Assembly: GCA_008632985.1 (NCBI GenBank)
Contig: QPGO01000277.1
Coordinates: 50,471-70,470 of the forward strand
Reading direction: 5' to 3'
Origin: Psammoneis japonica
Lineage: Eukaryota
Length of the DNA: 20,000 nt
Part shown: positions 1 to 20,000 of the stretch, piece by piece
Layout of the letters: every line of letters begins with the position of its first letter
Position numbering within the stretch: the first letter of the stretch is position 1
Program-made: the position numbers and the translations under genes
Notes under the pieces: generated by a model
The model's input: the letters and a program-made list of their open reading frames with translations, nothing else
Told to the model about the DNA's origin: nothing
Database searches by the model: none

Positions 1-47
1 AGCCGGACCGCATCTGAGGATCGCAGATACCCCACGTTTTTGACACC

Positions 48-1196: not shown

Positions 1197-1311
1197 GCTT
1201 TTTTCTCAAGTGTAATAAAAGCAGTTATCTTCCTACAAAACGTTTCCTCTAGAGTGTAGCTTAGGGCCCTGTGTGTTTCTCTAGGGTTAGGTGGCGGCTT
1301 CCATGTCTGAA

Positions 1312-2904
1312 TCAAGAGAATTGCATTCTGAAAGAGTTTCTAAAGTCGCGCTGGTGGAGGAAGAGGTTGGCTGTGAATTTTGTGCCTCTCGTTACAGGAA
1401 GAACCTCGTGATGCAACTTATTCTCTGCTTCATTGGGATCATTGTCCAAAACGTTTGCCCAAAGCACCGCCTTTCCTTTCTTTGGAGTAATTTTCTTTTT
1501 GTGGAGTACCCCAAAATGAGTTTCCCCGCCTTGAAAATCATCGTTGAGAAAGAACGTGAACGTCAAAATACGAACTCCACAGGGTCGCACCTTGTGAATC
1601 ACGTTGTAGTCGTGGTGAACACCATGTCGCTGACCCCTTTGATATCGGGATAGCTGAAGCGGCTCTGCGTGTTCTTTCGGCACACCCGTCAAATTCGCAA
1701 CACGATCAAGTAACCGTTGAATCACGGGGTCTTCTTCACAAGTATAGTCACACCAGCTACGGAATGGGGTGTTGTAGGAAGAAGCCCTGAACGAATAGGT
1801 TCCACCCACTTTGACTTCAATCGTCACTTCTTCAGATCGTCCATAGACGCGTCGCTCACCATGATACAGCATTCGTTCAATTTCGTCGTCGGAAAGAAAG
1901 TTGTCAAACGTAAGAAACCACGGTCCAGGATTCGATGTTGTTCCCTCTTTGTAGGGACGATAAAGAATTGATGGAGAGTACCCAGCGAAATCATCTCTCT
2001 CGATCATTGTCTCAAACAAATCAGTCAAGTCTCCCTTCTTCTTGAGAACATCAATTGCATTATTCGAATCCATTTCACATTGTTTTGCTACATCAACCAC
2101 ATTGCAACTGTGGCAGGCAGGGGCGCACAAAGGATTGTATTGCCGGGTTTCTGCAGTGACCTTGTGCCGCCCATATTGAACACATTTCATTTCCATTACG
2201 ACAAAGTTCTCGTGCCGCGGCGCTTCTTGGATCAGCCATTACCTGGCGCATATAATGTATGCTTTGATGAATTACAGCGGCCACCAACGTGTTGTTCTCG
2301 TCTTGTTTCTGTCGAACGCCAAAGTCGACCCTATTGTTTGAAGCAGAAAAGGAGTGAGCGCAGCCCAGAAACCCAATAAGCAATTCAGAAGATATTCATT
2401 AAGCTCACGTTTGACTAGTGCTGGACTTGCAGGCTTTACATGCTTTGGGACAGTTCGACAGCATGAAATAGGGGTTCCTTGCGCATTGATTCTGTCTTTC
2501 CCATGTTGCGCACTGAGCATGATTGTCAACGCAAGGCTCGGTAGAAACTGGTTCATTCCTACTCATTAACGAACGAAACAGTACCTTAGATGGAATATTG
2601 ATCGGTGACTCCAACATGAGACACGTATTACTTACGTTCTACATACAAAACAGCTTCTTGGGCATTTCTTGCTCATGAAATCAATGTTTACAACGCATTC
2701 TCCCTGATGCTCCCAAGCCGTACAACGGTCGTCCAAGTCTTTACACTCATCGGTGGTTCTCGAGGCGTCGGTAGAACTTGTGGAGCTCGACGGTTCATGC
2801 TCATCATGATGCAAGCATTTTCCGTCAATCGACACGCAATCGCCGAGAACTTGTGACGACAATGACGAAAAAACCAAAGGCACAAGAATCTGTTGGACCT
2901 TCAT
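1312..2904 (-). CDS. Secretory-pathway prolyl 4-hydroxylase (2OG-Fe(II) oxygenase) with three N-terminal ShKT domains; 3 exons, one apparent frameshift
   Basis: Signal peptide MKVQQILVPLVFSSLSSQVLG. Exons 2904-2636, 2558-2409 and 2330-1312, with phase-2 GT-AG introns 2635-2559 and 2408-2331. ShKT Cys patterns (CKDLDDRCTAW..GEC..CPRSCFVC; CVDNHAQCATW..CPKACKAC; CRNGNEMCSIW..CAPACHSC). Catalytic HHDY...GGETHF...HEVLPV..GTK motifs. One extra base near 2129-2131 shifts the frame inside the third ShKT. Confidence 0.88.
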
Positions 2905-3137
2905 CGCTGCTTCCAGTTTCGTCGCCCTTTAATATCTGCTGCACTTTACTCTGCAGTGCGTGAAGGACAGAAATTCTGCTCGACTACAGCATCAACCGTC
3001 ATTGCGTGTGTTGCTGAAGGAAGGCAGAAATCGGAAATCTTTCGGCGGATTTGACGTTACACAAATATTCAGAACTGAGGTTTTTGATACGATTTTAAAA
3101 AAATTCAATGATGGACTTGTTCGACTCGCTGGGACAA

Positions 3138-3149
3138 ACTGACGTCAGT
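3138..3149. promoter_or_regulatory. Palindromic CRE-type bZIP site ACTGACGTCAGT (TGACGT core) in the divergent P4H/NEET promoter
   Basis: Perfect 12-bp palindrome, with a second TGACGT at 3052-3057. TGACGT is the known aureochrome bZIP core. Function is inferred. Confidence 0.4.
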
Positions 3150-3315
3150 GATGGCAAAAAAATCCATCGAAACAAATCCGACATCGACGACCCATCGCAT
3201 CGATCAAATCCATCATCGCCATCTATCTTCCACCAACCAACTCCATAATTCTACGTTGCTGACTTGTCGCAGGTTGCAGAATACATCATAGTTTTAAGCC
3301 ACCATCAGACCAACC

Positions 3316-3612
3316 ATGAAGTCCTTTATCATTTCCGCTTTTCTTTTGTCGCAGGCAGCCGCCTTTACCTTTGTTTCTAGTCCCAGGGTTATTGAAACGA
3401 GGCTATTCGAGAAGGGAAAGATCAACGACAAGATTGACCTCGACAGCCCAAAGGTTGCTACCATGGAAACCCTTACTGGCAAGACCAAGAAGGTGTACTG
3501 CCGCTGCTGGGAGTCTGGAACCTTTCCGCTGTGTGATGGCTCGCACATGAAGCACAATGAAGCCACTGGTGATAACGTTGGGCCTCTTATCGTCACCGTC
3601 AAGGAGGAGTAG
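3316..3612 (+). CDS. CDGSH iron-sulfur (NEET-type) protein, plastid-targeted
   Basis: YCRCWESGTFPLCDGSHMKHN is the CDGSH 3Cys-1His [2Fe-2S] motif, followed by GDNVGPL. The N-terminal signal peptide ends AAA|FTF (ASAFAP-like) and is followed by a short transit peptide. Confidence 0.93.
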   Translation: MKSFIISAFLLSQAAAFTFVSSPRVIETRLFEKGKINDKIDLDSPKVATMETLTGKTKKVYCRCWESGTFPLCDGSHMKHNEATGDNVGPLIVTVKEE

Positions 3613-4251
3613 ATCTTCAAAGCTACGAAGATATTGTCGCTGAATGAGTCATTACTCAAGAATCAAAGACATGTTTTGCTTTTTATCTGAAGGAATTTCG
3701 ACGAACTAGAGAGCACTACCTAAATGCATACCCATTGAATCTTAAAGTTGTGTCTACAATGGATTCTATCAATGAAATCTAGAATGTTTCGTGAAAGAGT
3801 CACCCACGCTCCTTCCATACCGTTGACTCGTTCACAGCTGATCGTACATTGCATGGCATGATAGAGGAATGAGACCCTCAGAGTAGATTTGTGCGGATCT
3901 ATTGCTTTTCAGTTTTTTGAATTGATTTCGTTTTGGCTCGACCGAGAACTTTTTATATCGTCAAACGAACGATCTTCGATCACACAATCACGACTGATTT
4001 AGTGTTTGTCTGACTGAGAACTCCCAAGCAAGCAATGCATTATCCTGTTTTAAACAAGCAGCGTGAATGAACGCTCTCATTAAGTTTCGGCCTCGTTTGC
4101 AGATGTCGCAGGAACCCCTACTGTATCTCCAGTAGTAGTGAAACGGCAAGGAAATATTGGCTGGCAATGTTGTTGAGCTCCATCTTTATGCACGCCGCGA
4201 CACACCATAGACTACGAAACGAGCAAACTTAAACAAGATTGGAACGAAGAA

Positions 4252-4485
4252 CTAGTAGAACACATCTAGCTAGGACAAACACCAACTAGTAGTACCGGTA
4301 GTTGCTGGATACCATTTTACCTCACATTAGAAGCCCTACAAGAGAGTAGAAAAACTATATGAAACAAAGTACAGTGGGCTAGCTAGAATACAAGGATCAC
4401 TAGAGACAATGTAGGGCCTACAAGTGAATTGCGCATGATTCTACTAGAGCTACTAGTCTAGAGGTAGCCTCTCATCTCTAGCTAG
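4252..4485. repeat. CTAG/TAG-rich low-complexity intergenic tract
   Basis: 12 CTAG tetramers in 234 bp (4252, 4266, 4270, 4286, 4379, 4383, 4400, 4444, 4453, 4458, 4478, 4482), and only about 2 CpG. Confidence 0.75.
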
Positions 4486-4547
4486 AGTAGAGACCATCCT
4501 GAATCCGTGACTCCCATTCATGATGTGCTTCTTTTTGCCAAAACTGA

Positions 4548-4673
4548 GTCGTGATTAGCCATCTTCACGACTTAAAAATCTCTCATTTCAAGCGATTCAC
4601 GACCAAAGTTTTGTTCGAAATCGTTCCAAAATCGGAAATTCGCTAAATCGTGATCGATAATTGCCACGTGGCA
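4548..4673. promoter_or_regulatory. Motif cluster: 4x TCGTGA/TCACGA plus palindromic G-box TGCCACGTGGCA
   Basis: TCGTGA/TCACGA near 4549, 4565, 4597 and 4648. Perfect 12-bp palindrome at 4662-4673, about 110 bp upstream of the ATG at 4783. Confidence 0.45.
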
Positions 4674-4782
4674 GTCCCGTTTTCCCAAGTCCCACTTCTG
4701 TCTGACACTCTCTCTTTTTGTCATTTCGTTCTGTTCTCACAATTCAAGTCACAAGACGCAAAACAGAATACAGCAGCCTATC

Positions 4783-5094
4783 ATGTCTAAGGGAATCGCA
4801 AAAGCCATCGCTGAGACCGTTTGGGGAAAACCGGCGTTCAAACCGAAGGAGTTCATCGTGGTTGGAGTGGATCAAGAAGATGATGTTAACCGCTGGAACG
4901 ACGACGAAAAGCCGACTGCAGAAGAGCAATGGTATGGAGTCTCAAGCACAACCCAGCCCGAGGCAGTAAAACATGGCGAACGGGTCAATGCGGTCAAGGA
5001 GTTTACTGTCGTCTCTTCGAATTTTCAACCAACTGAAACCTGGGAAGAAGAAGTTCGCACTCCCAGCGAGTTATGGTACGGAGACTACAATTGA
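4783..5094 (+). CDS. Small acidic hypothetical protein with two internal KEFxVV...WYG repeats
   Basis: 103-aa ATG-initiated ORF with an internal repeat conserved at protein level (KEFIVV..W..T.EEQWYG / KEFTVV..W..TPSELWYG). Confidence 0.7.
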   Translation: MSKGIAKAIAETVWGKPAFKPKEFIVVGVDQEDDVNRWNDDEKPTAEEQWYGVSSTTQPEAVKHGERVNAVKEFTVVSSNFQPTETWEEEVRTPSELWYGDYN

Positions 5095-5275
5095 TTTGTG
5101 GCTTGAACTCAAGTAGATTGCGGTGGCATGCAATAGCCACCTTACACGCTAATGGAAAAATAAATAAAAGCTTTCTCAATCTTCTTTGTTTCTCATAGTA
5201 AGTAGTCTTACAAGGCTTTGGTGGTCTCAGCGCACGGTGCTGCAAAGCGAACCGCCGCAATGACTTAGATCTGGT

Positions 5276-7892
5276 CTAAATCGATGGACCGAGCATCAAC
5301 CCCACAGCGCTCTCTTGTTCCAATCGACTGAATCTCCCAAGCTGCGTCGAACGGATAGCTCCCACCGGTGTTTGAACCTCAGTAGGGCGGTCCAATTTCT
5401 TCCGCTCTGAATTTTCCCTGACAAATGCCCTTGTCAACCCTTTGCACAAGGCTTCTCTGTCGGGATCTTGTTCAGCCTCTTCCGTAATTCCCCATTCTCA
5501 TCGAATAACTTTCCAGTCATAATATCACCCTGCGTAAAACGTGACATGACAACATGGATTCCGTCCACATCAAAGGACGAATGGAACCTTTCGAACGAAT
5601 CTCCGTTTTGATGTCGGTCTTCATCTCGATGAAGAATCTGGATTGCCAGTTTCAGCAAGTCGTTGTACATGCACGGGTGTGCTAACGGAGCCACAACATC
5701 GCTGTCGTCTTCGTCGGCGGTTTCTTCCAAACACGCCACAATGTTGCGTGCCATTGCTTCATCACTTTTCTCTTCAAAAAAAGCGTGGGCCACATCAAAG
5801 ACGTGGATGAGCAACTTGACTTCTGGAATGCGCTTGGCAAACGATGAGTTGTCATCTTCACGAATGGATTCTACCATTTCTTTGGCAGCATCGTAGTCCC
5901 GGCCCATAGCCTCGGATACTTCCGTTTTCACCAAGCTCTTCAGGAGCGCTTGGGATGCCGTGACCAGGTACGTCGTCAAGAACCCCCCACAGACTCCTGA
6001 ACTTAGGACACGCTGCCAAGCACTCATGCTATCTCCCTCGTTGCTGGCGTAGACATACTTTTCAAACTCAATACCTTGCAACAGCCAATGAACTGCGCCA
6101 CCCGGTCGCTTGGCCTTGACATGATGACGGTATCGGGACAAGACCATACCAACACACCCGTCGAGTACATGAACACACTTGCGCTCCACCAGCTTTCGGC
6201 AATGATTCAACAAGCTTTTTGTTTCAACGTCCGTTTGTGGGGCGTACCGTTCCAATGTCTCTCCGAGGGTGGCCATGATTCGAACATCGCCACGGGGCGT
6301 TGCGTAGGGCAAAAGGATGCGGGTTGACAGAAGGATGGCCAAGTCAGCATAAGCAGGGTTGAGAGAGGACAAAATCGCTTCTGACGCAGACAGCAAGAGG
6401 TCCGTTTGGATGTTGGAAGAAGTATCGTCCGGAGGAGGCATGATGTTTGCTTCATTGAGCAGACTGGAGAGCAGCGCCGTCTGAAAAAGAAATGAGTAGT
6501 AGTGGCTGGGTGGTAAGCACGATGAAACTTCAATGTAGAATCAAGATAGAACAATGATGCAGAGTATCTTCTCACCAATGTTTCTGGCAAGGCGGCTCCA
6601 CTACCGCCTCCATAGGTATGAAGAGCTTGAATAACCTGACCGGCATTTCGTTGCATTACGTTCAGAACCAGGTTGTCAAAATCTTCCGCGGTATCTTCTC
6701 CGAATCCTAGGCTCCTGATGCGAGATGCCCGGACATGCATATCCTCGGGTCGGAGAGTGGGACGCAGGTACAGCAGTTCTGAACAGAGAGCTTCTCCCCA
6801 ACATGAAAAGTCAGCATTGTCAAACTCGCCACGCAAAATTTCGAGAATAGGCTGCAACTGCGGAACGCGTCTTGTCAATGCCGCAAGAGCTCTCGAACCA
6901 ATCAGGTAACGATGCCACGTACTATGAGCCTCCTTGGCAGCATGTGGATTGTAGCTGAGCGGCAAGTCGTCAACCGAACTGGAACTGTTGTTTTCCCACA
7001 GCTTGTACGCCGAAGGCGGCAATCCGTCCAGCACGGTTTCGTTTGATGATTCGTCCTCCACATCGCTGTTAAAACCTGTATCATTCTGATCACTTCGTCC
7101 TCCGGGGAGAGGGGCCGACTGCAAAATTGCTTGCAGTTCTCTGAAGCTTTCCCGGTCTTGTGCCAGTGTAGCTGCGTGATATTCATCCAAAACATCACTA
7201 CCAGCCATTGAAAAGGACCGTCGACAAAGTGAGTGGCGACTCAACAGGGACCAGGCGTCCTCGACACATCCGCGAAGAACAAGTATCTTGATCATGTCCC
7301 AGTATAAATCGAACTGTTCTGGCTGTGGCGATTGTAAGATCTCCTCCATGGCAGACTCATTGGTATTTGCCGCCTTGAACGCATCCTCCATATGATGGAG
7401 ACGCAGATAGCGTACCGTGTCGGCTGTTAGAGATCCTTGCATGGACATCATGTCTTCGAATTCTTCAGACGGCGGCGTTAGCAGATATACATCGGACACG
7501 TGCACAACAGCATAGGCGACCTTGAGGAGCTCCAAACTAGTCGGTCTGCCGTTTTCTTCGCCGTTGTTGGGTGCGTCGTCGGTAGAATCATCTTCTTCCC
7601 ATCCACTCAGACAGTCGGATATGATTTTTCGATAAGATTTACAGAGCTCTTTGATATTCTTCCATTGTCCTCGAGGCTTGGTTGCATAATAAGCTTCGTG
7701 TGCCTCCGCCAGCAGCATCAGAGCTCTCTGTTCATGCTTGTTGCATCCAGCACCATCGTCGGCGAGAAACGTGTCGAATTGTAACTCGCCACCACCCTCA
7801 GCGTTTATCACCAACAAGAGAGACGAGGGAGATTGAGGATCCCAAATCACGGGCCGCTGTGGTTGCGATCCAGATGAAGACGACGACGCCAT
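5276..7892 (-). CDS. NUP85: Nucleoporin Nup85; 2 exons, apparent frameshift near the C-terminus
   Basis: Exon 1 is 7892-6576, the GT-AG intron is 6575-6481, and exon 2 starts at 6480 in frame with ORF 5434..6441. Nup85-like segments YWDMIKILVLRGCVEDAWSLL, ILEILRG, WGEALCSELLYLRP and GGAVHWLL. A natural-looking C-terminus (REALCKGLTRAFVRENS...GPSI*, stop 5278-5276) lies in another frame, with the shift at about 5460-5520. Confidence 0.8.
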
Positions 7893-8077
7893 GGTGCACC
7901 TCTCTGTGGAAGGCGGCGGCAGAGCGCAAAAGATCTGCGTAGAAATCGTACTGAAGCTTTACGTAGGAAAGCAAAGCAATCGATCGTAGGCTCGCGCGCT
8001 CGTGAGACTCCATCGAAGGACGCAGGACGCGGCAGCACAACTAACAAAGCTCAAAGCCAAAGCGGAAAGCGGCGAGG

Positions 8078-8695
8078 ATGGCATCGATGTCGAAATGCGA
8101 AATTGAAAATGCATCCAATACGATCTCAATCGGAATGGCCACTCCCATCAACGAGTCTATGAGTTCATCGGAAATCACCTCCGTCAGCTTGGCTGTCAAA
8201 GCCACCAGCAGTCGTGCTGGAGACTTGACAATGCACCCGGAGGCGTTGGATTCCACTTCGCGATGCTCTTTTTTGCAGCCGCAGTCGCCGCTAACTTCGG
8301 AGCAGGAGCATTCCGTCACCTCCACTACGAGCAACGATTTAACTTCGTTGTTATCCGGTGAGGATTACTTCAAAGTCTCTCCTGCTTTTGTCGCGACGGA
8401 AACCCACAAAATGCTTTTGGACTGTGTTCGAAAGGGTAACAAGTGGCAGGAGGATTTGGAAATTGTTCAGGGTCTTACCGAGGCTGAATCCTGCGAGTGC
8501 TTCAGTGTTGCCGGAAAATATTTGCATTCCAATGTCTTTCCCGAGGGTGCTACGATCACAAAGCTCTTTCGTCACGCCAAAGCAGGGTGGGAACACCTTA
8601 GAAAGGTGGATGAACTCGCAAAGAAGTATCCGCAGGCGTTTGTCGACATAAATCGCCAAGCACTTGCGGAGGGAAAGCGAATGGGGGACTTTTAG
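8078..8695 (+). CDS. Hypothetical protein (Ser/Thr-rich N-half, globular-looking C-half)
   Basis: 205-aa ATG ORF, divergent from NUP85 and convergent with the next gene. No family recognised. Confidence 0.65.
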   Translation: MASMSKCEIENASNTISIGMATPINESMSSSEITSVSLAVKATSSRAGDLTMHPEALDSTSRCSFLQPQSPLTSEQEHSVTSTTSNDLTSLLSGEDYFKVSPAFVATETHKMLLDCVRKGNKWQEDLEIVQGLTEAESCECFSVAGKYLHSNVFPEGATITKLFRHAKAGWEHLRKVDELAKKYPQAFVDINRQALAEGKRMGDF

Positions 8696-8811
8696 TACGT
8701 GTACCAGGTATAAATTCGTGCTCTCACCGAGAAAACTGAGCGCACGGAAAAATAGGGGAGAATATTATCGAGTCTGTTGACAAATTGTAAACGTTCAAAG
8801 GATTATGCTGT

Positions 8812-10617
8812 CTATTTTGACGCGGTTTCCGAAATGGCAAACTTTAGCTCCGCAAGAAGCGCGCCAGATGCACCTAAAAACACACCAGAGAATGATTCGA
8901 CGTTTGTCGCGTTACCTGCCGGTGTTGCAGCATCTTGAATATCATCTTCAATCGACATTTCCACTTCTTCTGCAAGGTCCATGACTCCTAACCGGTTGCT
9001 CAGCTCTTGCAACAGATTTGCTTGGTCCCGCTCGTTGGCAGCTGATGACTCTGCAAAGCTGTAGTCAATCTCTGCCGCTCTGGCCGGCGCCTGCGACTTG
9101 GAACCTTTACCCGAAAACACAGCAGTTTTGTTTTTCAGAGTGTCAGAAGGCTGGAGTGGAATCGGTACATTCGATACTTGGTCATGACCCAAGTCTTCAT
9201 ACTGCGTCGGACAAACTTCCTTAGATACGTTGACCTCAGCCCTTGATTCTCTCTTGTTGCCTTTCCGCTTTTCGGTATCGATGCCGTCACTGTTAAACTT
9301 GGCAAGAACATCATCTCTTGCCAGCTGATGGATATCCATTGCATTTCCAACATGTTGACCAACTCGGCCGAACCACTCATGCATGTCGCCGGATTCTTCG
9401 TTTTTATCAGTATTACAAGCATCCTGAAATGCCCACAATGCAACGCGAGCTGCTTCTAGCTCCAAATGCATATTCTCCAAGTACTTGAAAACAATTCTAG
9501 ATTCCAATGTTTGCGGTTTCTTGGGTGCAGGTGAAAGGACGCTTTCAACATGCAGTTTCGTCTCTGCTGCCATCCACGCGGACTCTTCAAGTGCGGCTTC
9601 CAGAGTTGACACTATAGTCAAGCCATGCAATCCGATCGGGGAACCCAATATTGAAAGAACTTTGGACAGCACATCTTGAAGCTGTTTTCGAGATGAATTC
9701 AGCATGGATAGCGTGATTGTCGTTGGCTGTTTCTCATTTGAAATCGAGTCGTCAATGCTCTCGTCCAATCGTACCAGCAGCGATTCAAGAGATGAACGTT
9801 GCTCCACCATGGCGCGCCAAATCAAGGTTCTTGCGCGTTGAAACGTTACCGAGACCCTGACGGTAGCTTTTCCGTGGGTATCCTTGGTTCTGTGCTGGCG
9901 TCCCAGCGCTGCTCGTTCAACACGAGCAACGCAACGAGACGATGGTCCTAAACCAAGCTGTATTCCCGTTCCGACTCGAACAGTTTCCGCGGCGCGATCA
10001 AATGCGAGCAAGAGTTTTACGTGCGCCTGGGTGAACCCTATCACCCTCTCAGATTGTTCTTTTAAAGTGTTTTCATTGCATTGTTGCGACGTGAACGAGC
10101 TTCCGATATAATTTGAAGTAGTTTCGAGCAGAGTGGCTGACAGGGGAGGAGCTCCGACAGATCCCAATAAAGCAGACATTTGCGTCCGACATTGATGACT
10201 TTGCTTGCACAACATGTTTCGATAATCCGAAGAAATAGCAGCGTCCTTGCGTTTCGTTTTCGAATCGAAATACTTCCATACAAATAGTACAGCCAGACAC
10301 ACGGCCGCATATCGGATCCATCCATGCGGTTGGTAGCAAGAGGCATTTTCCAGTCTCTCGTAGTTTGAACAAAACCTTCCAATGATAAAACCTATCAAAC
10401 ATCCTGAAATCACAAGCACGTACATATTCAAAGTCGGCCGATTCCCAAACAACGCGTCCGTCGAGACAAGCGCTTTTTTGTCCTTCGGTTCTTTTTTTTG
10501 TGTGGTGGTACTAGCCACATGATGTTGTGTCTGGACACTAGTTTTGTGCAAAAAATCATGTCGTTCGTCACCATGATCGTAAAGGTGTTGCTCCAACTGA
10601 GGATTCAAACCTAACAT
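8812..10617 (-). CDS. Two-TM membrane protein, vezatin-like
   Basis: About 600-aa uninterrupted ORF. Two hydrophobic helices (YVLVISGCLIGFIIG; YAAVCLAVLFVW), an N-terminal NPQLEQHLYDHG segment, a helical middle, and C-terminal LLQEL/LLAELK. The vezatin call is from remembered architecture only. First ATG is at 10617. Confidence 0.6.
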   Translation of the reverse strand: MLGLNPQLEQHLYDHGDERHDFLHKTSVQTQHHVASTTTQKKEPKDKKALVSTDALFGNRPTLNMYVLVISGCLIGFIIGRFCSNYERLENASCYQPHGWIRYAAVCLAVLFVWKYFDSKTKRKDAAISSDYRNMLCKQSHQCRTQMSALLGSVGAPPLSATLLETTSNYIGSSFTSQQCNENTLKEQSERVIGFTQAHVKLLLAFDRAAETVRVGTGIQLGLGPSSRCVARVERAALGRQHRTKDTHGKATVRVSVTFQRARTLIWRAMVEQRSSLESLLVRLDESIDDSISNEKQPTTITLSMLNSSRKQLQDVLSKVLSILGSPIGLHGLTIVSTLEAALEESAWMAAETKLHVESVLSPAPKKPQTLESRIVFKYLENMHLELEAARVALWAFQDACNTDKNEESGDMHEWFGRVGQHVGNAMDIHQLARDDVLAKFNSDGIDTEKRKGNKRESRAEVNVSKEVCPTQYEDLGHDQVSNVPIPLQPSDTLKNKTAVFSGKGSKSQAPARAAEIDYSFAESSAANERDQANLLQELSNRLGVMDLAEEVEMSIEDDIQDAATPAGNATNVESFSGVFLGASGALLAELKFAISETASK

Positions 10618-10857
10618 CACCCGAAGCTCAATAACACGGCCTCTGTTACCTCATGGTGATCATACCATAGAGGCAAACTGAGCGATGAGCGATGAAAGCA
10701 AAACGGAATAAAAAATGGAAAACGGCATCATTTTCGCGATTTCCCGGTCGACACACGGTCGGCGGGATTATGCGCGCGCGCGCGAGATTGACGACTCACT
10801 CGAGCTGGACAGAGCAGTCGAAGAAGTCGTCATGAAGATCTGACGAAAAAATCTTGG

Positions 10858-11005
10858 CAGCGTCCTCATTTTCAATTTGCCTTTCCACCATGGGCAATCC
10901 GCTCCGCGGCCTGCGAGTGTTGGATCTTTCCCAGCGTCCTCATTTTCAATTTGCCTTTCCACCATGGGCACTCCGCTCCGCGGCCTGCGAGTGTTGGATC
11001 TCTCC
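10858..11005 (+). repeat. 74-bp direct tandem duplication spanning the CoA-transferase start codon
   Basis: Copy 1 is 10858-10931 and copy 2 is 10932-11005, with 2 mismatches (gggcAatcc vs gggcActcc region; gatctTtcc vs gatctCtcc). Confidence 0.95.
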
Positions 11006-12222
11006 CGTGTATTAGCAGGACCATGGTGCACCATGCTCCTTGGAGACGCTGGTGCTGACGTTATCAAGCTTGAACGAACCAAAACTGGAGATGAAACGAG
11101 AAATTGGGGACCACCGTTTGTCAACGGCGACGTTTCAACGTACTTTTTAAGTGTCAATCGAAACAAGAGTTCAATCGCGGTAGACATTAAAACAACGGAA
11201 GGATTGGATCTATGCCGTCGTCTTGCAACAGAGTGGGCGGATGTACTTGTCGAGAATTTCAAGGTTGGAACAATGGAGCGACTGGGTCTCAGCTATGAAA
11301 CATTGAGGCAGGAGAATCCAGGTCTCGTTTATTGCAGTATTACTGGGTTCGGAAGCACGGGACCACTGAGCAGTCGACCAGGATACGATGTCATCATCAG
11401 TGGGATGTACGGTCTCATGTCAATCACAGGAGAAGAGCATGGAGATCCCGCCAAGGTGGGAGTTGCCATTACAGACGTGGTGGCGGGTACTCTGGCGCAC
11501 GGAGGTATTCTTGCAGCCTTATATCAACGAAACCGGACCGGACGCGGTCAACAAGTGGAAACATCACTCATGGAGACGCAACTCGCCTCCTTGGTCAACA
11601 TTGCCTCCAGCTCACTCAATAGTCCAGAGGGAACGCCGCCTCCACAACGATGGGGTACCGCACACGAGTCCATTGTGCCTTACCAAACTTTTCCATGCAA
11701 GCACGACGACGGTGAGGAAAAGCAATACGTGGTTGTTGGAGCTGGAAATGATTTACAGTTTAAAAAATTGTGCAACGCCATGGGCATGGATGAGGTGGCA
11801 AGTAGCGATCGATTTAGAACAAACGCGGATAGGGTGAAAAATCGCAACGAGCTTGTTGCTGTGCTAGAAAAGAGATTTCTTCAAAAGACACGAAATGAAT
11901 GGGTAGACTTGTTGAGTGACAAGGGTTTCCCGATTGGACCCGTTCGATCCGTTCCTGAGGCGTTTGAATGCGAACAGGCCATTCATCGTGGCATAGTGAC
12001 AGAGATGAACCATGTTGTTGCGGGAAGATCAAGTTGCCAAGGACTCCCATTTTGTACGTGGGCGAGTCAACAGACAATTTGGATAAACCAAAACCACCTC
12101 CCATGCTTGGAGAACATACCGAGGAGATCCTCACCAACGTTCTAGATATGACTCCTGGGGAGGTTCGAGCATTAGAACGAGCCGGGGTGATCGAGTGTTG
12201 GCGGCAACAAGAGCCAAAGTAG
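10964..12222 (+). CDS. Family III CoA-transferase (CaiB/BaiF, SUGCT-like); frameshift near 12022-12026, possibly a young pseudogene
   Basis: PLRGLRVLDLSRVLAGP, NRNKSS, ADVLVENF, YCSITGFG, GYD and the catalytic-Asp region GVAITD. The family C-terminus PPPMLGEHTEEIL...GVI continues in a second frame to the stop at 12220-12222. Confidence 0.9.
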
Positions 12223-12431
12223 CATGTTCAATGTGCGTGCCACCATGTTATTCTAAGCGGTTTGATCCTTTTGAAGAATGCGAAATTGATGTTGTACACA
12301 AGGCAAACGGGGGGCGCCCTTTGTTCCACGCCCCGTATAATCATTTCTCGCGTTGGAGTTGTCGTATCTTTGTGCATCCGGACAAGCAGAGTCGACTAGA
12401 CCCAAGGGTAGTATAGTCTGATGTGAAAAAA

Positions 12432-13450
12432 TATGTTGTTTGTGCAATATCCGAGAATCTTGACAAGGAAACACGCGTCACGTCGCTAGATGCCGGATCT
12501 CCAACATCGTTGCTCATTACAAAGCAAGAAAACGGACAAGTGCACGCAGAGACGCGTGCCTAACTCGAACTATTGCAGCATGACGAAGTACTCTTGAAAC
12601 AAGGAAGACGAAGCTCGCAGCTAGTAAAGAAAGTTTTATCACTTCGCACGCAGAAACAGGGTGCAGAGAATCCCATTGACGCCGACAGGAACCGACGGCG
12701 TCATAAAAAACACAGGTCTACATCTCGGCACAATCGAAATTTCAATACAACACCATTCGACCGAGAACCATCTCATCATGATTTGCTGGATAATTCAGAC
12801 GACGACGGCGAAGACATTCCACCTAGCGGACACATGGCTGGTCCATGTAGCACTTTGATCCAAGAGCGTATTTCGACAGAACCAACGGCGCCGCACTCCT
12901 TCAGCGAATTACACCATCTGATACCTGCGACACGTTGGAAGAATACATTCTCCTTTCATCTGCCCATGCAATTCCGCTCTATAAGCGATTGTGCCTTGGC
13001 TCTTAATGCAAACCTTGCCAAAAATTTCATCCAGCTCAACGTCAATGCCGGTGGAAGCAACCGAATGAACATTTGCGATCGTCGTAACTACACTTAGAGC
13101 TTCTTGCAAATGCCAAGACTGGTAAACTGCCCAACTCACTCTTATATGCAACATGACTTAGGTTGGCAGTCGGTTACTGTGAACCAATCTCATGGCGCCA
13201 CCAATGCGAATGGAAACAATCAGTACTCAGTTCGATCTCGTCGATACCTTCTTGGGGCGACGAAGATTTTTTATGTAATACAATCATGGAGCATCTCGTT
13301 GCACTACCCAATGTCGAGGAAATGCTATCAAGGTCACCATCCCAATCCATGGAAACATGGAAAGAACAGGGTTAAACTCAAGAAACTCCTCGTGTGGTGA
13401 GCAAAGGGATCTCTGCTCCAACATGCATCAAGAGTATTCTTGCGGCCAGG
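12432..13450 (+). pseudogene. MSH4: Degenerate MutS-family gene, MSH4-like (N-terminal/core portion only)
   Basis: Pieces across frames: VCAISENLDKETRVTSLDAGSP..KQENGQVHAETRA*LELLQHDEVLL; RAYFDRTNGAALLQRI..EEYILLSSAHA; RMNICDRR..LELLANAKTGK; VGSRLL*TNLMAPP..ETISTQFDLVDTFL; EHLVALPNVEEMLS; SKGISAPTCIKSIL. Stops at 12561, 13004 and 13180, plus several frameshifts. No ATPase domain seen. Confidence 0.78.
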
Positions 13451-13628
13451 TGTGTGCTCTTTCTCAAATTTTACAGCTTCCTTGTTGGCCTAGTCATTGA
13501 AGAGACTCTCATCTTTGCCTGCATCGTCTTGTTCAAACCATTAACTCATACTGCAAGCAGCGACCTGATCACCAGTCCGCCTCGATAGAGCTTAACACAC
13601 AGAGCTAGCCGTACGGTAGCAGCAAGGT

Positions 13629-13904
13629 CTACTGGATCGGATGATCTGTCCGTAAGCTTCCCTTCTTCTTCCAGGATGGAAAAGATGGAGGAGGATCATC
13701 GTTCCGGGCTTTGAAGTGGCCGGCTTCTTCAAATAGTTTGTCAAACATGTTCAAGTGCGTTCTTGATATAACCATGTCGCAAAAGATGGTTGGTGCCAAC
13801 GCCAAAAAAGCACCGAGAAAGTACGAAAAGATGGTTCTGAATCGTGAAATGTCGAAAGTAGGGCGACGTCAAGAAAGTGGTCCTTATTCCCTCTTTTTGG
13901 TCAT
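13629..13904 (-). pseudogene. Possible 5' remnant of a type II membrane protein gene
   Basis: ATG at 13904 reads MTKKRE*GPLS*RRPTFDISRFRTIFSYFLGAFLALAPTIFC..., i.e. a basic N-terminus then one hydrophobic stretch, with two early stops. Confidence 0.25.
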
Positions 13905-14328
13905 TAGATAGGGTCTGCGGGAAATCGCGGATTGAGGCGAAAAACGCAAAAAATCTATAGCAGAAATATTAGAAGCAGTGTGATAACACATTGCATCTAG
14001 CAGTAGCACCGGTACGATTTCAGCCTAGAGATTACGAACTGTGCTGTTTTACAAAAAGAGAACAGTGCCCAGGCCTTTATAGAAATACTCATCATTGCTT
14101 TTGAGGTTGCCTTGCGCACTATCATGTTCTCAGAATCGGAAACTGCGGCATGTCGTGAAAGCCGTCGAGTCCCTGCGCCGTCGCCCGAGCATTGGTGCTG
14201 TGCCAGGCTTGACACCTTCAACTGGTGGATACCAATTTGCTATGGATGGCACCAACTTTGGTTCACTATCTATTCGCAGGGCTAGAATAAAGAAAAGTGA
14301 TGTTTCTAAAGAAAATTGTCCTATCTAA

Positions 14329-15277
14329 TTATAGATCCTTGTAATCTACATTAAAAAGCGGTTCACCATTTTGAATCGCAAGCTGTGTTATGACAGCTAC
14401 AGCCCGAAATACATCGGCATGCTTCGATAGCGGTTTGTGGCGAAACCTTTTCTCCAGAATTGTCCAATTTTTGAAGCGTTCGTTGCACGTCTCCTGTCGA
14501 TTAAGAGCACGCCTCTGCATTTCTTCCATCTCCTTCGGGTTTGCAAAACTGCTGGGGCACTTAACATAGATGGGGGACTCACCCACGTACCCATCGTCAG
14601 CCTCTACGCGTTCCCCCTTGTCCAGTTCCGTCTTCAATGCCGATCGAAAAATGTCTAAGTCGTTGTACACGCCGGGCGCAAAGGGCCCATTAATCCACAC
14701 AATGTGACCGGTCAAAATGCATGCTGCTGCTTCGTAACGAAGTCCGCAGTCGTTGAATTTATGAGAGTAAAACTTCCTGCCGTGATTCGGGACACGAAAG
14801 TCTGTTCCGTCCACAGTAACTAGACAATCGTTTCCGACGTCACCAGTGCGGCGATTCTCCCAAATCATCTGGGCAGAACAAACAACAACACAAACAATGC
14901 GGGTGAGAATCAATTTTTTGAAACATGTGGAAATGTTGTCGCAATTGGGCACTTGCCAAGTGTGGCTCGAGTGATGCAATAGCCTCAATCATTGGCCACT
15001 TCCACGTTCGGAAAGTTTTTTCGTCGACTCCCCCAGCTTTGCCGGCAAGGTCAGTTTCCTTGCCATCAGATTTCAAAAAATTAAGTGCCCACAGCATGTG
15101 GCAGGCATTTGCTCCGTGGGGCAGCACGTCGTGGTGGACGAGGAGGTTCCACAGCGCGAGAGCCACGATTGGGCCGCAACCAAAAAACTCACGAAAACGC
15201 CTGTCCTCGGTCATTGTGGCGCCAAACTTCTTGTTGCCTCCATTCATCATTCCACGCCCCAAATTCATGAGGTCCTG
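14329..15277 (-). mobile_element. PIF/Harbinger-like DDE transposase gene (DDE_Tnp_4-like), 2 exons, 5' end abutted by an LTR
   Basis: Exon 1 (15277-14957): RRFREFFG..HMLWALNFLK..GVDEKTFRTW. Phase-0 intron 14956-14869 with GCAAGT donor and CAG acceptor. Exon 2 (14868-14329) carries an intact triad VTVDGTDF / VEADDGY / RQETCNERFKNW plus YSHKF..GLRYE. Confidence 0.88.
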
Positions 15278-15662
15278 TGCAGCGTGCGACTGTTGCACAC
15301 ACATTTATGATTACATGTTATTTGTGTGTCAATCGCACCACAGTCGTGGATGCGCACAAAGGACAGAACGATCACACAGAGTTGATCGGATGTCGAGAAT
15401 TGCAAATACGATCGATTGACGATGTTGACATCTTACGTGTCAACAGCAATCGCATCCGGACAATCTGTTGTCACGAATGTATTCTCCGAAAGGCCTTTTG
15501 TCTGTAGAAGCAGTGCAGAAGCTTTAGGCCATTGAGAACTCGTTCGGAGAAACCAAAAATCACAGAGCAAAATTTAATCTCATAATTTCCACTTTTCGTG
15601 CACCATTCTACTTTCGTTTACACTCGTTCTTCGAGCACAGTGCATTGTGCATGCACACCACA
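15278..15662 (+). repeat. 5' LTR (about 385 bp, TG...CA)
   Basis: 15278-15637 aligns without gaps to 19641-20000 (25 mismatches in 360 bp). The end at 15662 is inferred from the terminal CA and a degenerate inverted repeat. Confidence 0.88.
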
Positions 15663-15789
15663 GAAGGTAAAAAGCACGGAAAATGAAAATTTCAACTAAT
15701 GTGCCTTTGCAAATTCTTCTATAAACAGGAACGAATCGCATCAGTTCTGCTGGAATCGATTTCCGAGCGGAAGAAGCTCAAGCCGAGCA

Positions 15790-18700
15790 GTGCCTCAAGA
15801 TGGAACGCTGTTTTTCGTCTGCCAGACAAGAGGATTCGCTCCAATGCGGTCTGTTCCAAGCACCCAAGGATCAAGGGCTCTCAAGTACACCGCATTGTCA
15901 AAAAATCTACACCAAGTCATGGTTGCAGAGAATGCAAGTTCCGAGTCGATCAGGTCCGAGAAATGCGTCTGGCATGCAAGGAGAGACTGTTGGAGAGTTT
16001 TTGCAGACCGAATCAACGAGCCTCGAGTCCAAGAGCAAGATGGAACAGTTGGAAAGTACCTCAAGCGTCTCACAACTCATGCCCTCCGAGGAAATGCACT
16101 TCAGAATCAGGGAAATTATTTTCGAGACGACCTGAAGAAACCAGAGCCGCTCAACAGCAAGAAAGCCTCTGACAGACCCAAGAGGTCAACGAGGAGAGTC
16201 TACACGACTCTCAGATGGATTCTAAGTCGAATCTAGCGGGAAACCGAGCGCTGATTTATCAGCTGTCACTCGCACCGCAAGGATGGCAGCATCAGCCCAC
16301 TGTCCAAAATGTTGAACTGCTGGATCATGCCCTTGACGAGCTGATTGAGGTTTGAGTCGTCTAGAGGTCGGCAAGGACGTCTGTGACAAAAAAACACATC
16401 AATTCGGGCTCTGACAGCGCAGTTGATTCCACAATCAAAAAGGTTCCAATTTTGGTTCCAAAAATGGTCTCCTGCATGGTGCCAGAACAATCCAAAGTGA
16501 ATGCAAGGTCTTGTCTTTGAAAAAAGAACACCTGCATCACGGATTGAAGCTGTTCTAAAAATGAACTGTCAAAAGAGTGCAAGGGTGACTCTGAAAGAGA
16601 CCCAAAAATGCGCCGTTCAAATGGCAATCGCACGCGGTCGCGTCGCGACAACGAAAATGCCGCTCGCAAAAAAAGAGATGAACGTCATGATTGATCAGGC
16701 GGTTCAAAAAAATGCTCAAAGCGAGTTCCTTGAACAAAGAAAAAGAGCATGAGGGCAAAGAATCAGATTCTGGTGCCCTCAGTGAAGAAAAATGCCAATT
16801 TGATCGGATGATCCAGACTGAATCCGAAGAACAATGTTGGTCCATTCACAAATTGCATGCTTTGCTGGACATCAGGAAGCCTAGAAAAAAGGCAGAAATA
16901 ATTCACACCAGTCCAGGAGTCATCATTTATGTGAATGCTTCCTTGGGAAAGGAGAGAAAAAAAAAAGCATCTGCGTGTTCCTGTCGACAACGGAACATCG
17001 TCAACCACAATTTTGCGCAAATTCGTGCGAAAGTTGAGAACACAAGAATCCGCCACCAAAAACTTGGGAAACCAAGGGTGAGCTCTTTACGACTGATGGT
17101 AAACACCAAATTCAGTTCTCACTGTGCAAAATTTAAGGCACGCTGATGTTCAAACAGCACATGTTGAAAACACCAAATTTTCTTCAGGTTCAAATGACAT
17201 GATCATGGGACGCGACTCAATGTCCAGTCCCTGCAAGTCACATTGGACTACGCAAATGAAGAAATCTAATGGGAAGAAGCAATTGCCTTATGAAGAATGT
17301 TCATGCGCTCTTCGATGCCGATGTTTTCAAGCTGAAAACCGATCACATTGAAAAATGTGACGCCGTGAACAGAGTCAATGACGGAACCAATGGCCCTCGA
17401 CTCACATTGTCGCGCCATCGATCTTAATCAAGTGACAACTGCGGCGATGCATCTAACCCAAATGAACACAACCAACTCAATCTTCTTCTTGAGAGGTTGA
17501 AATTGTTTTGAAAAGTTCCTCAGACAAATGCATGGGAAGCATCAGTGGATCTCATCGTGGAAAATCTGACGCGATTCCACGACGCGTGAGAACCTTCTCC
17601 TGTCACAGTCTTTGGAGGCGTCCAATCAAAAGGAGTTTGACCCATTGTGAAAGATTGAAGTCTCAAGAATGAAGTTGCTCTGAATGAGTCGCTCTGAGAC
17701 ACATTGTCCAAAGAAAACAGGTCGAGTTCGACCGCACCCGACACTCAGAAGCTCAGCATGAGGTTCACACAGGTGGTGTGTCCTTTGCCCAACATTCAGG
17801 AAATGCTGTTGAAGCAAGAACGTTTCACACATGCAATCCATTTGATTCAAACATGGAATGCCACCATGTCAAATAAAAAAAGCACACGTCGTGCTCACAC
17901 GAAAATCATGCCGTGGGGAGAAAATGAGCACTGTGGACTTCCAATGAGAATCTGTGGAGCCCCAGATGTTTTTGCACAACACTTGAGTGAACTCACAACA
18001 GGTTTGAAGTTGTCAGAACGACTGTGTGTGATCGTTTGTGCCTGACAAAAGTAACTTCAAAATGTCGCCTGTGCAAGTGACAGCTTAATGCGGCATTCAA
18101 ACGACTGGAACAGTCGCTTGGAAGGTCAACAACAAAAGTCCTTCACTGTTTAACTTGAAATAAACTATCAAGACTTCCATGCGCAACGACATGCAATCGA
18201 TTGCAAAGAAAATGGAGGCGATTCAAGCAATCGCAACACGAGAAAAACGCAAAGAACACTGCGACATCTCGTTGTCATACGTTGCTGTTGTCGAGACATG
18301 CAGTCTCAACGATCTCCTGTACAATGCCAGCCAAATTCACCTCAACAAAGGTCAAACGGCAAAAGCACAAGTACGGAACAAAAAGTCTCCGAAAATGTGG
18401 AGCGCATCAAATCAAAAACCACATTGTCATCATGCACGGATTTCAACATCACACGTTACAACAGAAAAAAAGAACTTCTGTCCACAGTGAAAACACTCAC
18501 AAAATTCCGAAACATGCTGTTTGGCCAACAGATTTGTGCATGTGCGGATCACAAGACACAACGGACAAAGTCATGCGTTGACAACTTCAGTCCCGAATTA
18601 GAATGCAACGAGGGCAAGGCGAACATCGTCGCGACAGACGCGATCAGCCGACTTGCCACAGAAAATTGAATCCTACGACAATGTCCTGCCGTTAAAACGG

Positions 18701-19620
18701 GGTGAAGACATTCCCTCCAAATTGTCGGACGCGACATGTCATACGAACACTTTTCGTGGAGGCGAGCGAGATCGAAAAATGCTCATGTCACAAGGACAAA
18801 ATCGCCTTTTTAAAGGATGATTTAGGAAAAAACAGTGACAGATTGGTGCACATTATACGCGTCCACTTCACACTGGCAAAAGACAATCTCACAACACCCG
18901 CACGGTTGTGTTGTACAATGTACGAGGCAAGACATTAAAATGTGCATCATGTCGACACATGAGATGTGCCAAAGATCTAGAAAAAGAAAAGAAAAATGGA
19001 CATTTGTCCACTTGGTGCACAAAACCAGTGCCTTCGGAATGACAAAACAACACCGGCATGTCAGAAAGAAACGTCCAAACAACGATTAAAATCCAACTGA
19101 TAGATGGTTGAAGTGCAAAAAAAAAAATCCACAATGGAATTCACAACCATCACAGGATTGATTGTCAAGACGAAATGGTCACAATGTCTTTGACCATCGT
19201 TTGTCATTGCTTGTGAAACGTGGCAGTGCAGCAGAGCAATGTGGCACACAAAGTGAGCCCGCCAAACTGCATGAAATCCACAAGTGAGCAAGTGAACACC
19301 ACAATTGAGAGCGTGCATTAAGCACTGGGCACGATGCCATGTACAATCGATGTCAGGAAAAACACTTGCTCCAGGACAATTAGTCCTTGTGTTCATGTCA
19401 ACAAGAACGTCAATGAGAATGCTCGACGCAATGCTGTGTGTGTGCACATTAAGTGAGAAACAAACAATGTCACTCTCAAAAGACATTCGGAAATTGGAAC
19501 GGCCCCATGTTGCCCATGCAAAACAACAACAGTCATTGCCAATGGCACAATGCAGTGAAAGTGGAGACATCATTGACACTGTCGATGTCCGTCGAACAAT
19601 CCACTTGCAAATGACTCCAA
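15790..19620 (+). pseudogene. Fragmented gag-pol
   Basis: Gag-like ALQNQGNYFRDDLKKP. Protease LRVPVDNGTSSTTI (16971-17012) and DMIMGRDS (17196-17219). RT CPLPNIQEML..FTHA..DSNMECHHV..PWG..LPM..PDVF (17779-17975). RNase H ELLSTV..FRNMLFG..CADHK..GKANIVATDAISRL (about 18470-18655). Integrase NPQ..IESVH*ALGTM and PGQLV (about 19270-19390). Many stops and frameshifts. Confidence 0.9.
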
Positions 19621-19629
19621 TGTGCAATT

Positions 19630-19640
19630 AGGGAGGCGAA
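19630..19640 (+). other. Polypurine tract
   Basis: AGGGAGGCGAA immediately 5' of the TG start of the 3' LTR. Confidence 0.8.
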
Positions 19641-20000
19641 TGCAGCACGCGACTGTTGTGCACATGTTTGTGATTGTGTGTCATTCATGTGTCAATCGCA
19701 CCACAGTCGTGGATGCGCACAAAGGACAGAACGATCACACAGAGTTGATCGGATGTCGAGAATTGCAGGTGCGATCGATTGACGATGTTGACATCTTGCG
19801 TGTCAACAGCAATCGCATCCGGACAATCTGTTGTCACGAACATGTTCTCCGAAAGGCCTTTTGTCTGTAGAAGCAGTGCAGAAGCTTTGGGCCATTGAGA
19901 ACTCGTTCGGAGAAACCAAAAATCACAGAGCAAAATTTAATCTCATAATTTCCACTTTTCGCACACTGTTCTACTTTCGTTTACACTCGTTCTTCGAGCA
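19641..20000 (+). repeat. 3' LTR (truncated by the window end)
   Basis: About 93% identical to 15278-15637, with no indels. Confidence 0.93.

Follow-up and report, generated by a model that had tools for sequence, protein, structure and literature searches.

What process could strip a mobile element of most of its TpA steps and leave TpG and CpA in their place? The question is raised by a stretch of 20,000 nucleotides from the diatom Psammoneis japonica (assembly GCA_008632985.1, contig QPGO01000277.1, positions 50,471 to 70,470 of the forward strand), hereafter the window, in which positions 15278-20000 are, judged by their sequence, a degenerate Ty3/gypsy-type long terminal repeat (LTR) retrotransposon on the + strand. 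The original prediction for this locus, made from the letters alone, was that an A:T-to-G:C process preferring TpA had acted on the integrated, double-stranded element. That proposal is supported here by changes on both strands, in both LTRs, and against outgroups. In our judgment the chances are somewhat better than even that the element and ~455 bp of its flank were hit after integration by a locally targeted TpA mutator, presumably serving as a defence and most likely working by adenine deamination.

LTRs produced by a single reverse-transcription event are identical at the start. The pair in question is:

15278..15640, + strand: 5′ LTR, starting with TG; direct repeat of 19641-20000; its 3′ end is unfixed, the partner ending with the window.
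19641..20000, + strand: 3′ LTR, direct repeat ending with the window; the more heavily erased copy.

Realigned without gaps over 360 positions (15278-15637 against 19641-20000, offset 4363), the two differed at 25 positions, all of them transitions and with no indels, as the original prediction had said; if transitions are taken to make up two thirds of changes, 25 of 25 has a probability of ~4e-5. Seven sites were CA/TG swaps (15296, 15302, 15314, 15323, 15478, 15599, and 15604) and seven read TA in the 5′ LTR against TG or CA in the 3′ LTR (15306, 15312, 15319, 15407, 15434, 15480, and 15525), and every predicted site of both kinds was recovered at its position. The remaining four mismatches were at 15284/5 (GT vs. 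AC) and 15405/6 (AA vs. GG). Nineteen ancestral TpA steps (38 positions) can be inferred in the LTR, and these held 21 of the 25 mismatches, again the number predicted, compared with 4 at the other 322 positions (Fisher p 6e-20). Adjacent double mismatches, 8 among the 25, were likewise more frequent than chance would give (p ~7e-5 by simulation).

Restoring the 14 inferred TpA steps yields an ancestral LTR with 19 TA, at a normal observed/expected ratio of ~0.65. The 5′ LTR retains 12 TA and the 3′ LTR 5 (observed/expected 0.19 in the latter), so that 7 of the 19 inferred steps were lost from the former and 14 of 19 from the latter (about 37–74%). Divergence of the pair is 7% overall and ~1% (4/322) outside TpA, and these few non-TpA differences make the insertion young by an ordinary clock. 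With A:T-to-G:C polarity assumed, A-to-G changes number 4 in the 5′ LTR and 12 in the 3′ LTR, and T-to-C changes 4 and 5, respectively; both strands were changed in both LTRs, and LTR identity and strand were unlinked. Every one of these mismatches fits either direction, however, and the LTR pair by itself is therefore not polarisable.

Observed/expected ratios in the interior of the element were 0.19 for TA, 0.86 for CG and 1.48 for CA+TG (for the whole element, rho TpA 0.21 and rho CpA+TpG 1.48), against 0.54, 1.01 and 1.16, respectively, in the flank (1-14821). TpA stood at 0.64 in the 4544 bp of flank lying outside open reading frames (ORFs); within the 20-kb window the element was poorer in TpA than this non-ORF DNA, which speaks against the refuting condition named in the original prediction, a change no more frequent in transposable elements than in neutral DNA. 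The near-erasure of internal TpA with retention of CpG that it described was also reproduced, with 1 TA and 19 CG in 17461-18050 and 0 TA and 17 CG in 16561-16880. For comparison, the loci of 82 relatives were fetched from viral and metagenome contigs, the metagenome part being the best 80 of 545 matches, all of the intact type. TpA observed/expected was between 0.55 and 1.18 in all 82 (median 0.76), and some loci were CpG-depleted (to 0.04) and none TpA-depleted. If the starting point was near the relatives’ median, the interior has lost about three quarters of its TpA. Five metagenome relatives (L060, L026, L022, L044, and L035) combined CpG ratios of 0.04–0.29 with normal TpA; the same clade of transposable elements shows classical methylation decay in other hosts.

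The direction of change, from TpA to TpG or CpA, is settled because three independent outgroup tests agree: composition, other copies in reads, and conserved protein columns. For the second of these, 5149 contigs of X1, the one public run that contains the element, were aligned on the window and the 40 best-supported of 634 difference rows were evaluated; all row counts given here and below refer to these 40. Thirty-nine of them fell inside the element, where nearly all other contigs differ from the window, and comprised 23 A:T-to-G:C changes, 8 G:C-to-A:T changes, 6 transversions, and two rows that make up one swap (window CA, majority TG). TpA was the site of 14 of the 23 A:T-to-G:C rows (11 A-to-G, 3 T-to-C), or of 15 of 24 changes with the swap included (binomial p 1e-6 to 2e-9). 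At the YPLP motif (17779-17781), for example, the majority reads TAT, for tyrosine (Tyr), and the window TGT. The original prediction had left room for a family that carries CG, or already CA or TG, at the affected sites. The other copies mostly read TA at the sites covered by these rows, which speaks for the predicted direction.

The third test used the 14 columns occupied by Tyr in at least 70% of the 48 intact polymerases. Across these columns of reverse transcriptase and RNase H the window encodes cysteine (Cys) at five, histidine (His) at two, Tyr at one and other residues at six. Two of these six are an artefact of frame: when the shifted one is read by eye, the GYYH motif comes out as ECHH. 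Tyr was thus retained at 1 of 14 columns, whereas the other conserved residues were kept at 89 of 233 (p 0.02). CGN-to-CAN changes at 4 of 18 arginine (Arg) columns are in line with minor CpG decay, and ordinary decay of 5-methylcytosine (5mC) is a side process beside the change from TpA to TpG or CpA.

The erasure does not end with the element. Upstream of the 5′ LTR lies a further zone:

14822..15277, no strand assigned: TpA-erased zone of the 5′ flank, in the N-terminal part of a − strand Harbinger-like (DDE_Tnp_4) pseudogene.

Only 2 TA occur in 14822-15305, compared with a minimum of 7 and a median of 17 in 14338 sliding 484-bp windows of 1-14821, and the zone 14822-15277 has the signature of the element (rho TA 0.07, rho CA+TG 1.44). 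Erasure and CA+TG gain together reach 455 bp past the 5′ LTR and then stop sharply at 14822, inside one pseudogene. This is a Harbinger/PIF-like transposase remnant at 14329-15304(−), read in two overlapping frames (14840-15304 and 14329-14988), with the DDE_Tnp_4 family found in 14329-14985(−). The proximal ORF, 14840-15304(−), encodes 154 aa with 0 Tyr, 8 Cys and 11 His; the distal half of the remnant keeps its TpA, and the distal ORF has six Tyr, every one of them encoded at positions below 14822. The retrotransposon lies at the 5′ part of this remnant or is inserted into it. Summed contig depth in run X1 rises ~40-fold exactly at the LTR start, so the LTR family is highly repeated, and, since depth jumps only there, the erased flank zone lies outside that family. 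The sequence argues strongly that the mutator spread into neighbouring DNA. Flank erasure and the LTR evidence together point to a region-targeted process on integrated DNA and not to RNA or cDNA editing. Within the 20-kb window, erasure was seen only in the element and this adjoining zone.

In the mechanism that we favour, a mutator would be recruited after integration to silenced mobile DNA. There it would act on the adenine of TpA in the strand that happens to be exposed; the altered base would be read as G, so that TpG or CpA results. The action would spread to a limited extent into adjoining DNA, and, in all, 37–74% of the LTR TpA and about three quarters of the internal TpA would have been changed, with other positions nearly untouched. 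Such a process would presumably be a defence aimed at silenced or foreign DNA. Its chemistry would most likely be the deamination of adenine to hypoxanthine on transiently single-stranded DNA by a deaminase of the TadA/ADAT2 kind. The natural tRNA target of TadA and ADAT2 is A34, which follows U33, and this is why a deaminase of that kind is favoured; adenine deamination as such is preferred because an excess of sense-strand A-to-G over T-to-C (32:17, p 0.04) fits an exposed non-template strand. TpG outnumbered CpA among the outcomes (24:12, p 0.07). Taken by itself, the assignment to adenine deamination by an enzyme of this kind is tentative, its chances falling a little short of even.

A number of observations weigh against this account. 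It is drawn from one locus, and its signature is less exclusive than that of the comparable process in the alga Bigelowiella natans, discussed below. Nine of the 23 A:T-to-G:C rows lay outside TpA (5 A-to-G, 4 T-to-C), and the eight G:C-to-A:T rows, 7 at CpG and 1 elsewhere, mark CpG decay as also present. The “majority” letter in these comparisons is contig-depth-weighted and comes from a single run, possibly of the assembly’s own sample. None of the 25 LTR sites (0/25) was among the rows compared, and it is therefore composition and analogy that give the LTR changes their polarity. The protein mapping is noisy, with 38% of the non-Tyr conserved columns kept and 6 of the 14 Tyr columns being neither Tyr, Cys nor His in the window. 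The sense-strand bias toward A-to-G would also fit some input at the RNA level. Finally, a word-indexed protein search found no relatives of the flank ORF, and the flank zone having none by which it could be polarised, the case for spreading draws on composition and on Tyr, Cys and His content.

The same post-integration, region-targeted process might instead act by oxidising thymine to 5-hydroxymethyluracil (5hmU) or 5-formyluracil (5fU), through a TET/JBP-type dioxygenase, with mispairing to G. A palindromic TpA step would then give TpG and CpA alike, as seen. In dinoflagellates 5hmU is said to prefer TpA and TpC, telomere repeats carry base J at their TpA step, and A:T-to-G:C changes are promoted by 5-formyluracil. 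Although the sequence draws no distinction between the two chemistries, the 2:1 sense-strand excess of A-to-G is more simply explained by deamination of an exposed non-template strand, and a literature search on 5hmU in diatoms matched dinoflagellate work only; thymine oxidation is, in our view, unlikely. Less likely again is A-to-I editing of RNA by an ADAR- or ADAT-like enzyme, fixed by reverse transcription, with the LTR differences arising through later recombination or gene conversion. It would account for the sense-strand excess and would suit a highly repeated family that was amplified while degenerate, and ADARs typically edit an A that has a U on its upstream side (10.64898/2026.01.13.699255). 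Yet T-to-C on the sense strand is common: it accounts for 9 of the 25 changes in the LTRs and, among the 23 polarised A:T-to-G:C rows, for 7. Each LTR shows both types of change, strand and LTR being unassociated. Editing before integration is also hard to square with LTRs that begin identical, with erasure of flank DNA that is not retroelement, and with the many changes private to the window copy. A related candidate, deamination of reverse-transcription intermediates, would leave A-to-G changes in the 5′ LTR but T-to-C changes in the 3′ LTR; it was rejected, as 4 of the 7 swaps run the other way.

Two further explanations appear very improbable to us, and to about the same degree. If TpA were hypermutable genome-wide, the element would display the neutral spectrum and the gene-dense flank would be under selection. 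In favour of this, TpA is low in that flank too (0.54), CA/TG is mildly raised, and CpG is not depleted. However, the non-ORF part of the flank retains the higher ratio given above, none of the 14338 flank windows comes near the element, the boundary at 14822 falls sharply within one pseudogene, and a rate such as that of the LTRs (21/38 at TpA vs. 4/322), if it applied everywhere, would empty intergenic DNA of TpA. The other explanation is an artefact, either of long-read base-calling at modified TpA or of a consensus that is a chimera of several copies. The sequencing technology is not on record, the best run contains only 57% of the element’s sampled 31-mers, and at 4 of the 39 rows the window’s letter is in no contig. 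The 57%, though, can be explained by the way contigs are built, since rare repeat variants are dropped in the process; in 35 of the 39 rows some depth was left beyond the listed other letter, and 1038 aligned contigs were at least 99% alike. Tyr-free relatives are present in other public data, and the matching mutations of B. natans were called from Illumina reads, according to the preprint that reports them (10.64898/2026.01.13.699255). Classical deamination of methylated CpG (5mCpG) in a CpG-rich ancestor, whereby CG would turn into TG in one LTR and into CA in its partner, with a second hit giving TA, formally accounts for the CA/TG swaps. It is also the simplest reading of 15284/5 (CGTG vs. 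CACG) and agrees with the polarised G:C-to-A:T rows, 7 of 8 of which are at CpG. As the main cause it is nevertheless refuted: the ancestral 360-bp LTR would need ~37 CpG, 21 CpG are intact in both LTRs and no further site reads CG against TG or CA, CpG observed/expected is 0.86 internally and 0.86–1.28 over the overall range, other copies have TA at such sites, and the affected conserved codons are those of Tyr, not Arg. The argument from retained CpG by which the original prediction had set 5mCpG deamination aside thus held up. GC-biased gene conversion was rejected as being without TpA specificity, and selection against TpA was rejected because it would not replace Tyr residues of the catalytic core.

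The TpA steps that survived give some indication of what a targeted TpA mutator may avoid. Of the 73 remaining in 14822-20000, 13 are in TTAA, a share 3.5 times that of the flank and 2.4 times that of the relatives; none is in ATAT and one is in GTAT. Among the survivors a T before TpA is over-represented, being found at 58 of the 146 neighbouring positions (p 2e-4 to 1e-6). Because the survivors are biased toward TTAA, the mutator seems to disfavour TTA and TAA contexts, which suggests an extended context preference on its part.

Other proteins bear what looks like the same trace. A phmmer search with the piece 17698-18042 found 49 relatives among 1.84 billion representative proteins, and the 45 of these 49 matches that each covered at least 30 conserved columns were screened for loss of Tyr; as the query was itself erased, the match list is biased toward Tyr-poor proteins. 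P0014 has Tyr at none of its 13 conserved-Tyr columns, Cys at 7 and His at 4, while keeping Arg at 13 of 14 columns and 76% identity at other conserved columns. P0045, a 699-aa open frame without any Tyr, has Tyr at none of 19 such columns, Cys at 5 and His at 9, and kept Arg at 17 of 24. P0021 and P0017 have 1 Tyr each, of 6 and 5 conserved-Tyr columns, respectively. A scan of viral contigs found no relatives of P0045 and P0014. By these protein comparisons, the replacement of Tyr by Cys or His appears not to be unique to this locus.

The element is assigned to the Ty3/gypsy type on account of its LTRs, which start with TG, of its polypurine tract, and of protease, reverse transcriptase and RNase H remnants that follow one another in that order. 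Frameshifts and deletions interrupt these domains. Remnants were placed by tblastn and by a profile built from the 48 intact relatives:

16953..17228, + strand: aspartic protease remnant; tblastn of P0019 residues 108-198, E 5e-6 against the window alone.
17659..18040, + strand: reverse transcriptase remnant, frameshifted; relatives carry RVT_1; profile domain E 1.5e-21.
18100..18654, + strand: RNase H remnant with internal deletions; profile domain E 4e-13; tblastn of P0018 extends to 18654.
18965..19354, + strand: possible integrase remnant, weak; tblastn of P0018 E 1.4–2.9 (non-significant), profile pieces E 0.18–0.27.
19630..19640, + strand: polypurine tract AGGGAGGCGAA, read from the sequence, directly 5′ of the 3′ LTR.

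Lying just before the 3′ LTR, the polypurine tract shows that the element reads on the + strand. P0019 carries the protease families RVP and Asp_protease_2, and the tested relatives carry RVT_1, RT_RNaseH, Integrase_H2C2, rve and retroviral protease families; for the integrase part, neither tblastn nor the profile search gave a significant match in the window. Pfam recognised little of what is left, returning a single weak match on 22 stop-to-stop pieces (RT_RNaseH, E 0.0063, 18154-18666) and no longer recognising the reverse transcriptase region. The translated interior contains 46 stop codons. A word-indexed protein search with the reverse transcriptase piece gave no match, nor did a PDB sequence search. 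Four long phmmer matches (P0001, P0002, P0004, and P0031) aligned to the reverse transcriptase piece in 8–15 separate stretches; they may be low-complexity or repetitive proteins, and a scan of P0001 found no Pfam family.

Few indels separate the window copy from the other copies, from which it follows that the family spread already broken. Summed depth in run X1 was ~3 times higher over the LTRs (15236-15603 and 19836-20000) than over the interior (15788-19651); depth is not copy number, and many solo LTRs would fit this excess. Three overlapping + strand frames of 136–178 aa lie at 15687-16236 and can coexist because TAA and TAG stops have been erased.

The remainder of the window is gene-dense flank that encodes RPL4, a Nup85-like protein, a coenzyme A (CoA)-transferase, and others. 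The nearest named relatives of the RPL4, at ~80% identity, are all from diatoms (Nitzschia, Cyclotella, Conticribra, and Cylindrotheca). At 10858-11005 a 74-bp unit is duplicated in tandem and in exact register, its two copies being 97% identical. The duplication takes in the start codon (ATG) and the codons just after it in the gene for CoA-transferase family III (ORF 10844-12145), which thus has its start twice. A 2OG-Fe(II) oxygenase gene (PF13640) at 1312-2235(−) is of the prolyl-hydroxylase type and not of the TET/JBP type, and nothing links the gene to the finding.

The original prediction had called the process undescribed. For diatoms this stands, a full-text literature search having found no report of TpA-erasing hypermutation in them; as a general statement it does not, the same signature being already on record for B. 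natans (Mettrop et al., bioRxiv 10.64898/2026.01.13.699255). The diatom case is a second instance of a kind first described in 2026 in an unrelated alga. Before then we know of no cellular system for dinucleotide-specific A:T-to-G:C mutation in chosen nuclear regions. The process is probably widespread among marine protists and not the peculiarity of one alga.

What the present locus adds to mutation-accumulation data is the LTR-pair evidence for action after integration, the spread into the flank, the relative sparing of TTAA, and the CpG decay alongside. Several practical consequences follow. Tyr-free ORFs, and low rho TpA combined with high rho CpA+TpG, are cheap genomic markers of the process, and the enzyme might be sought by phylogenetic profiling. 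Because LTR divergence is 7% overall and only ~1% outside TpA, standard LTR clocks would overestimate the age of such an insertion several-fold. Erased elements escape Pfam and yield spurious long ORFs in gene prediction, a matter for annotation, and a natural DNA adenine mutator with a defined context would be of interest for base editing.

Among known systems, those of the APOBEC and ADAR enzymes resemble the present one in producing deaminase-type clusters of transitions in retroelements, and the preference of ADARs for U before the edited A is like the TpA preference seen here (10.64898/2026.01.13.699255). These enzymes differ in acting before integration and on one strand, which leaves the LTRs alike and the flanks untouched, whereas in the window both strands, both LTRs and the flank are affected; APOBEC moreover gives G-to-A and the window A-to-G. 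Fungal repeat-induced point mutation (RIP) is closer in kind, a DNA-level mutator of mobile or repeated DNA that works on both strands, is dinucleotide-specific, makes transitions only, and destroys coding capacity. Fungal RIP also leaks into adjoining unique DNA. Its direction is the opposite, however: RIP turns CpA into TpA, raising TpA and lowering G+C, whereas in the window TA changed to TG or CA, TpA fell to as low as 0.19, and G+C went up. RIP creates stop codons; the process seen here does away with TAA and TAG, so that long open frames free of Tyr remain. A RID-like methyltransferase, DNMT4, has been described in diatoms, with no mutational signature mentioned in the available part of the paper on diatom DNA methyltransferases.

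The closest counterpart is that of the chlorarachniophyte B. natans, for which the preprint, in the parts available, reports TpA-only AT-to-GC hypermutation arising de novo in mutation-accumulation lines. The mutation rate of two integrated viral regions is ~1000 times that of the remaining genome. A-to-G or T-to-C accounts for 230 of the 231 mutations in these regions, every GC-biased one falling at TpA, and the hypermutable region reaches past the annotated insert. TpA-poor coding sequences in that genome are enriched in reverse transcriptase and DDE domains, the genome-specific 5% cut-offs are 0.43 for rho TpA and 1.52 for rho CpA+TpG, and the enzyme suggested by the authors is an ADAT2-like adenosine deaminase (Mettrop et al., bioRxiv 10.64898/2026.01.13.699255). 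The available main text makes no mention of diatoms, stramenopiles or LTR elements (10.64898/2026.01.13.699255).

So far as the preprint allows comparison, the two cases have in common a predominance of A-to-G and T-to-C changes at TpA, giving TpG or CpA according to strand, confinement (in the diatom, as seen within the 20-kb window) to particular foreign regions with some extension past the annotated element, and a long-term trace of low TpA with high CpA+TpG. They differ in host, a diatom (Stramenopiles) here and a rhizarian there, and in target, which is a high-copy LTR retrotransposon together with part of a DNA-transposon remnant in the window and a single-copy insert of giant-virus or virophage origin in B. 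natans. The evidence is historical in the window (LTR pair and outgroups) and in B. natans consists of de novo mutation. Erasure is deeper in the window (rho TpA 0.19–0.21 vs. 0.45 in the B. natans region derived from a nucleocytoplasmic large DNA virus) and less pure, with 14 of the 23 polarised changes at TpA among the 40 best-supported of 634 rows vs. all in B. natans. We would put it at an even chance that diatoms share with B. natans one type of locus- or chromatin-targeted TpA mutator, sparing TTAA and perhaps employing an enzyme of the ADAT2/TadA type, and that it is an old defence found across Stramenopiles, Alveolata and Rhizaria (SAR) or wider. A shared defence of this kind would disable retrotransposons after integration, erasing their Tyr codons together with TAA and TAG stops, and would spread a few hundred bases into neighbouring DNA.

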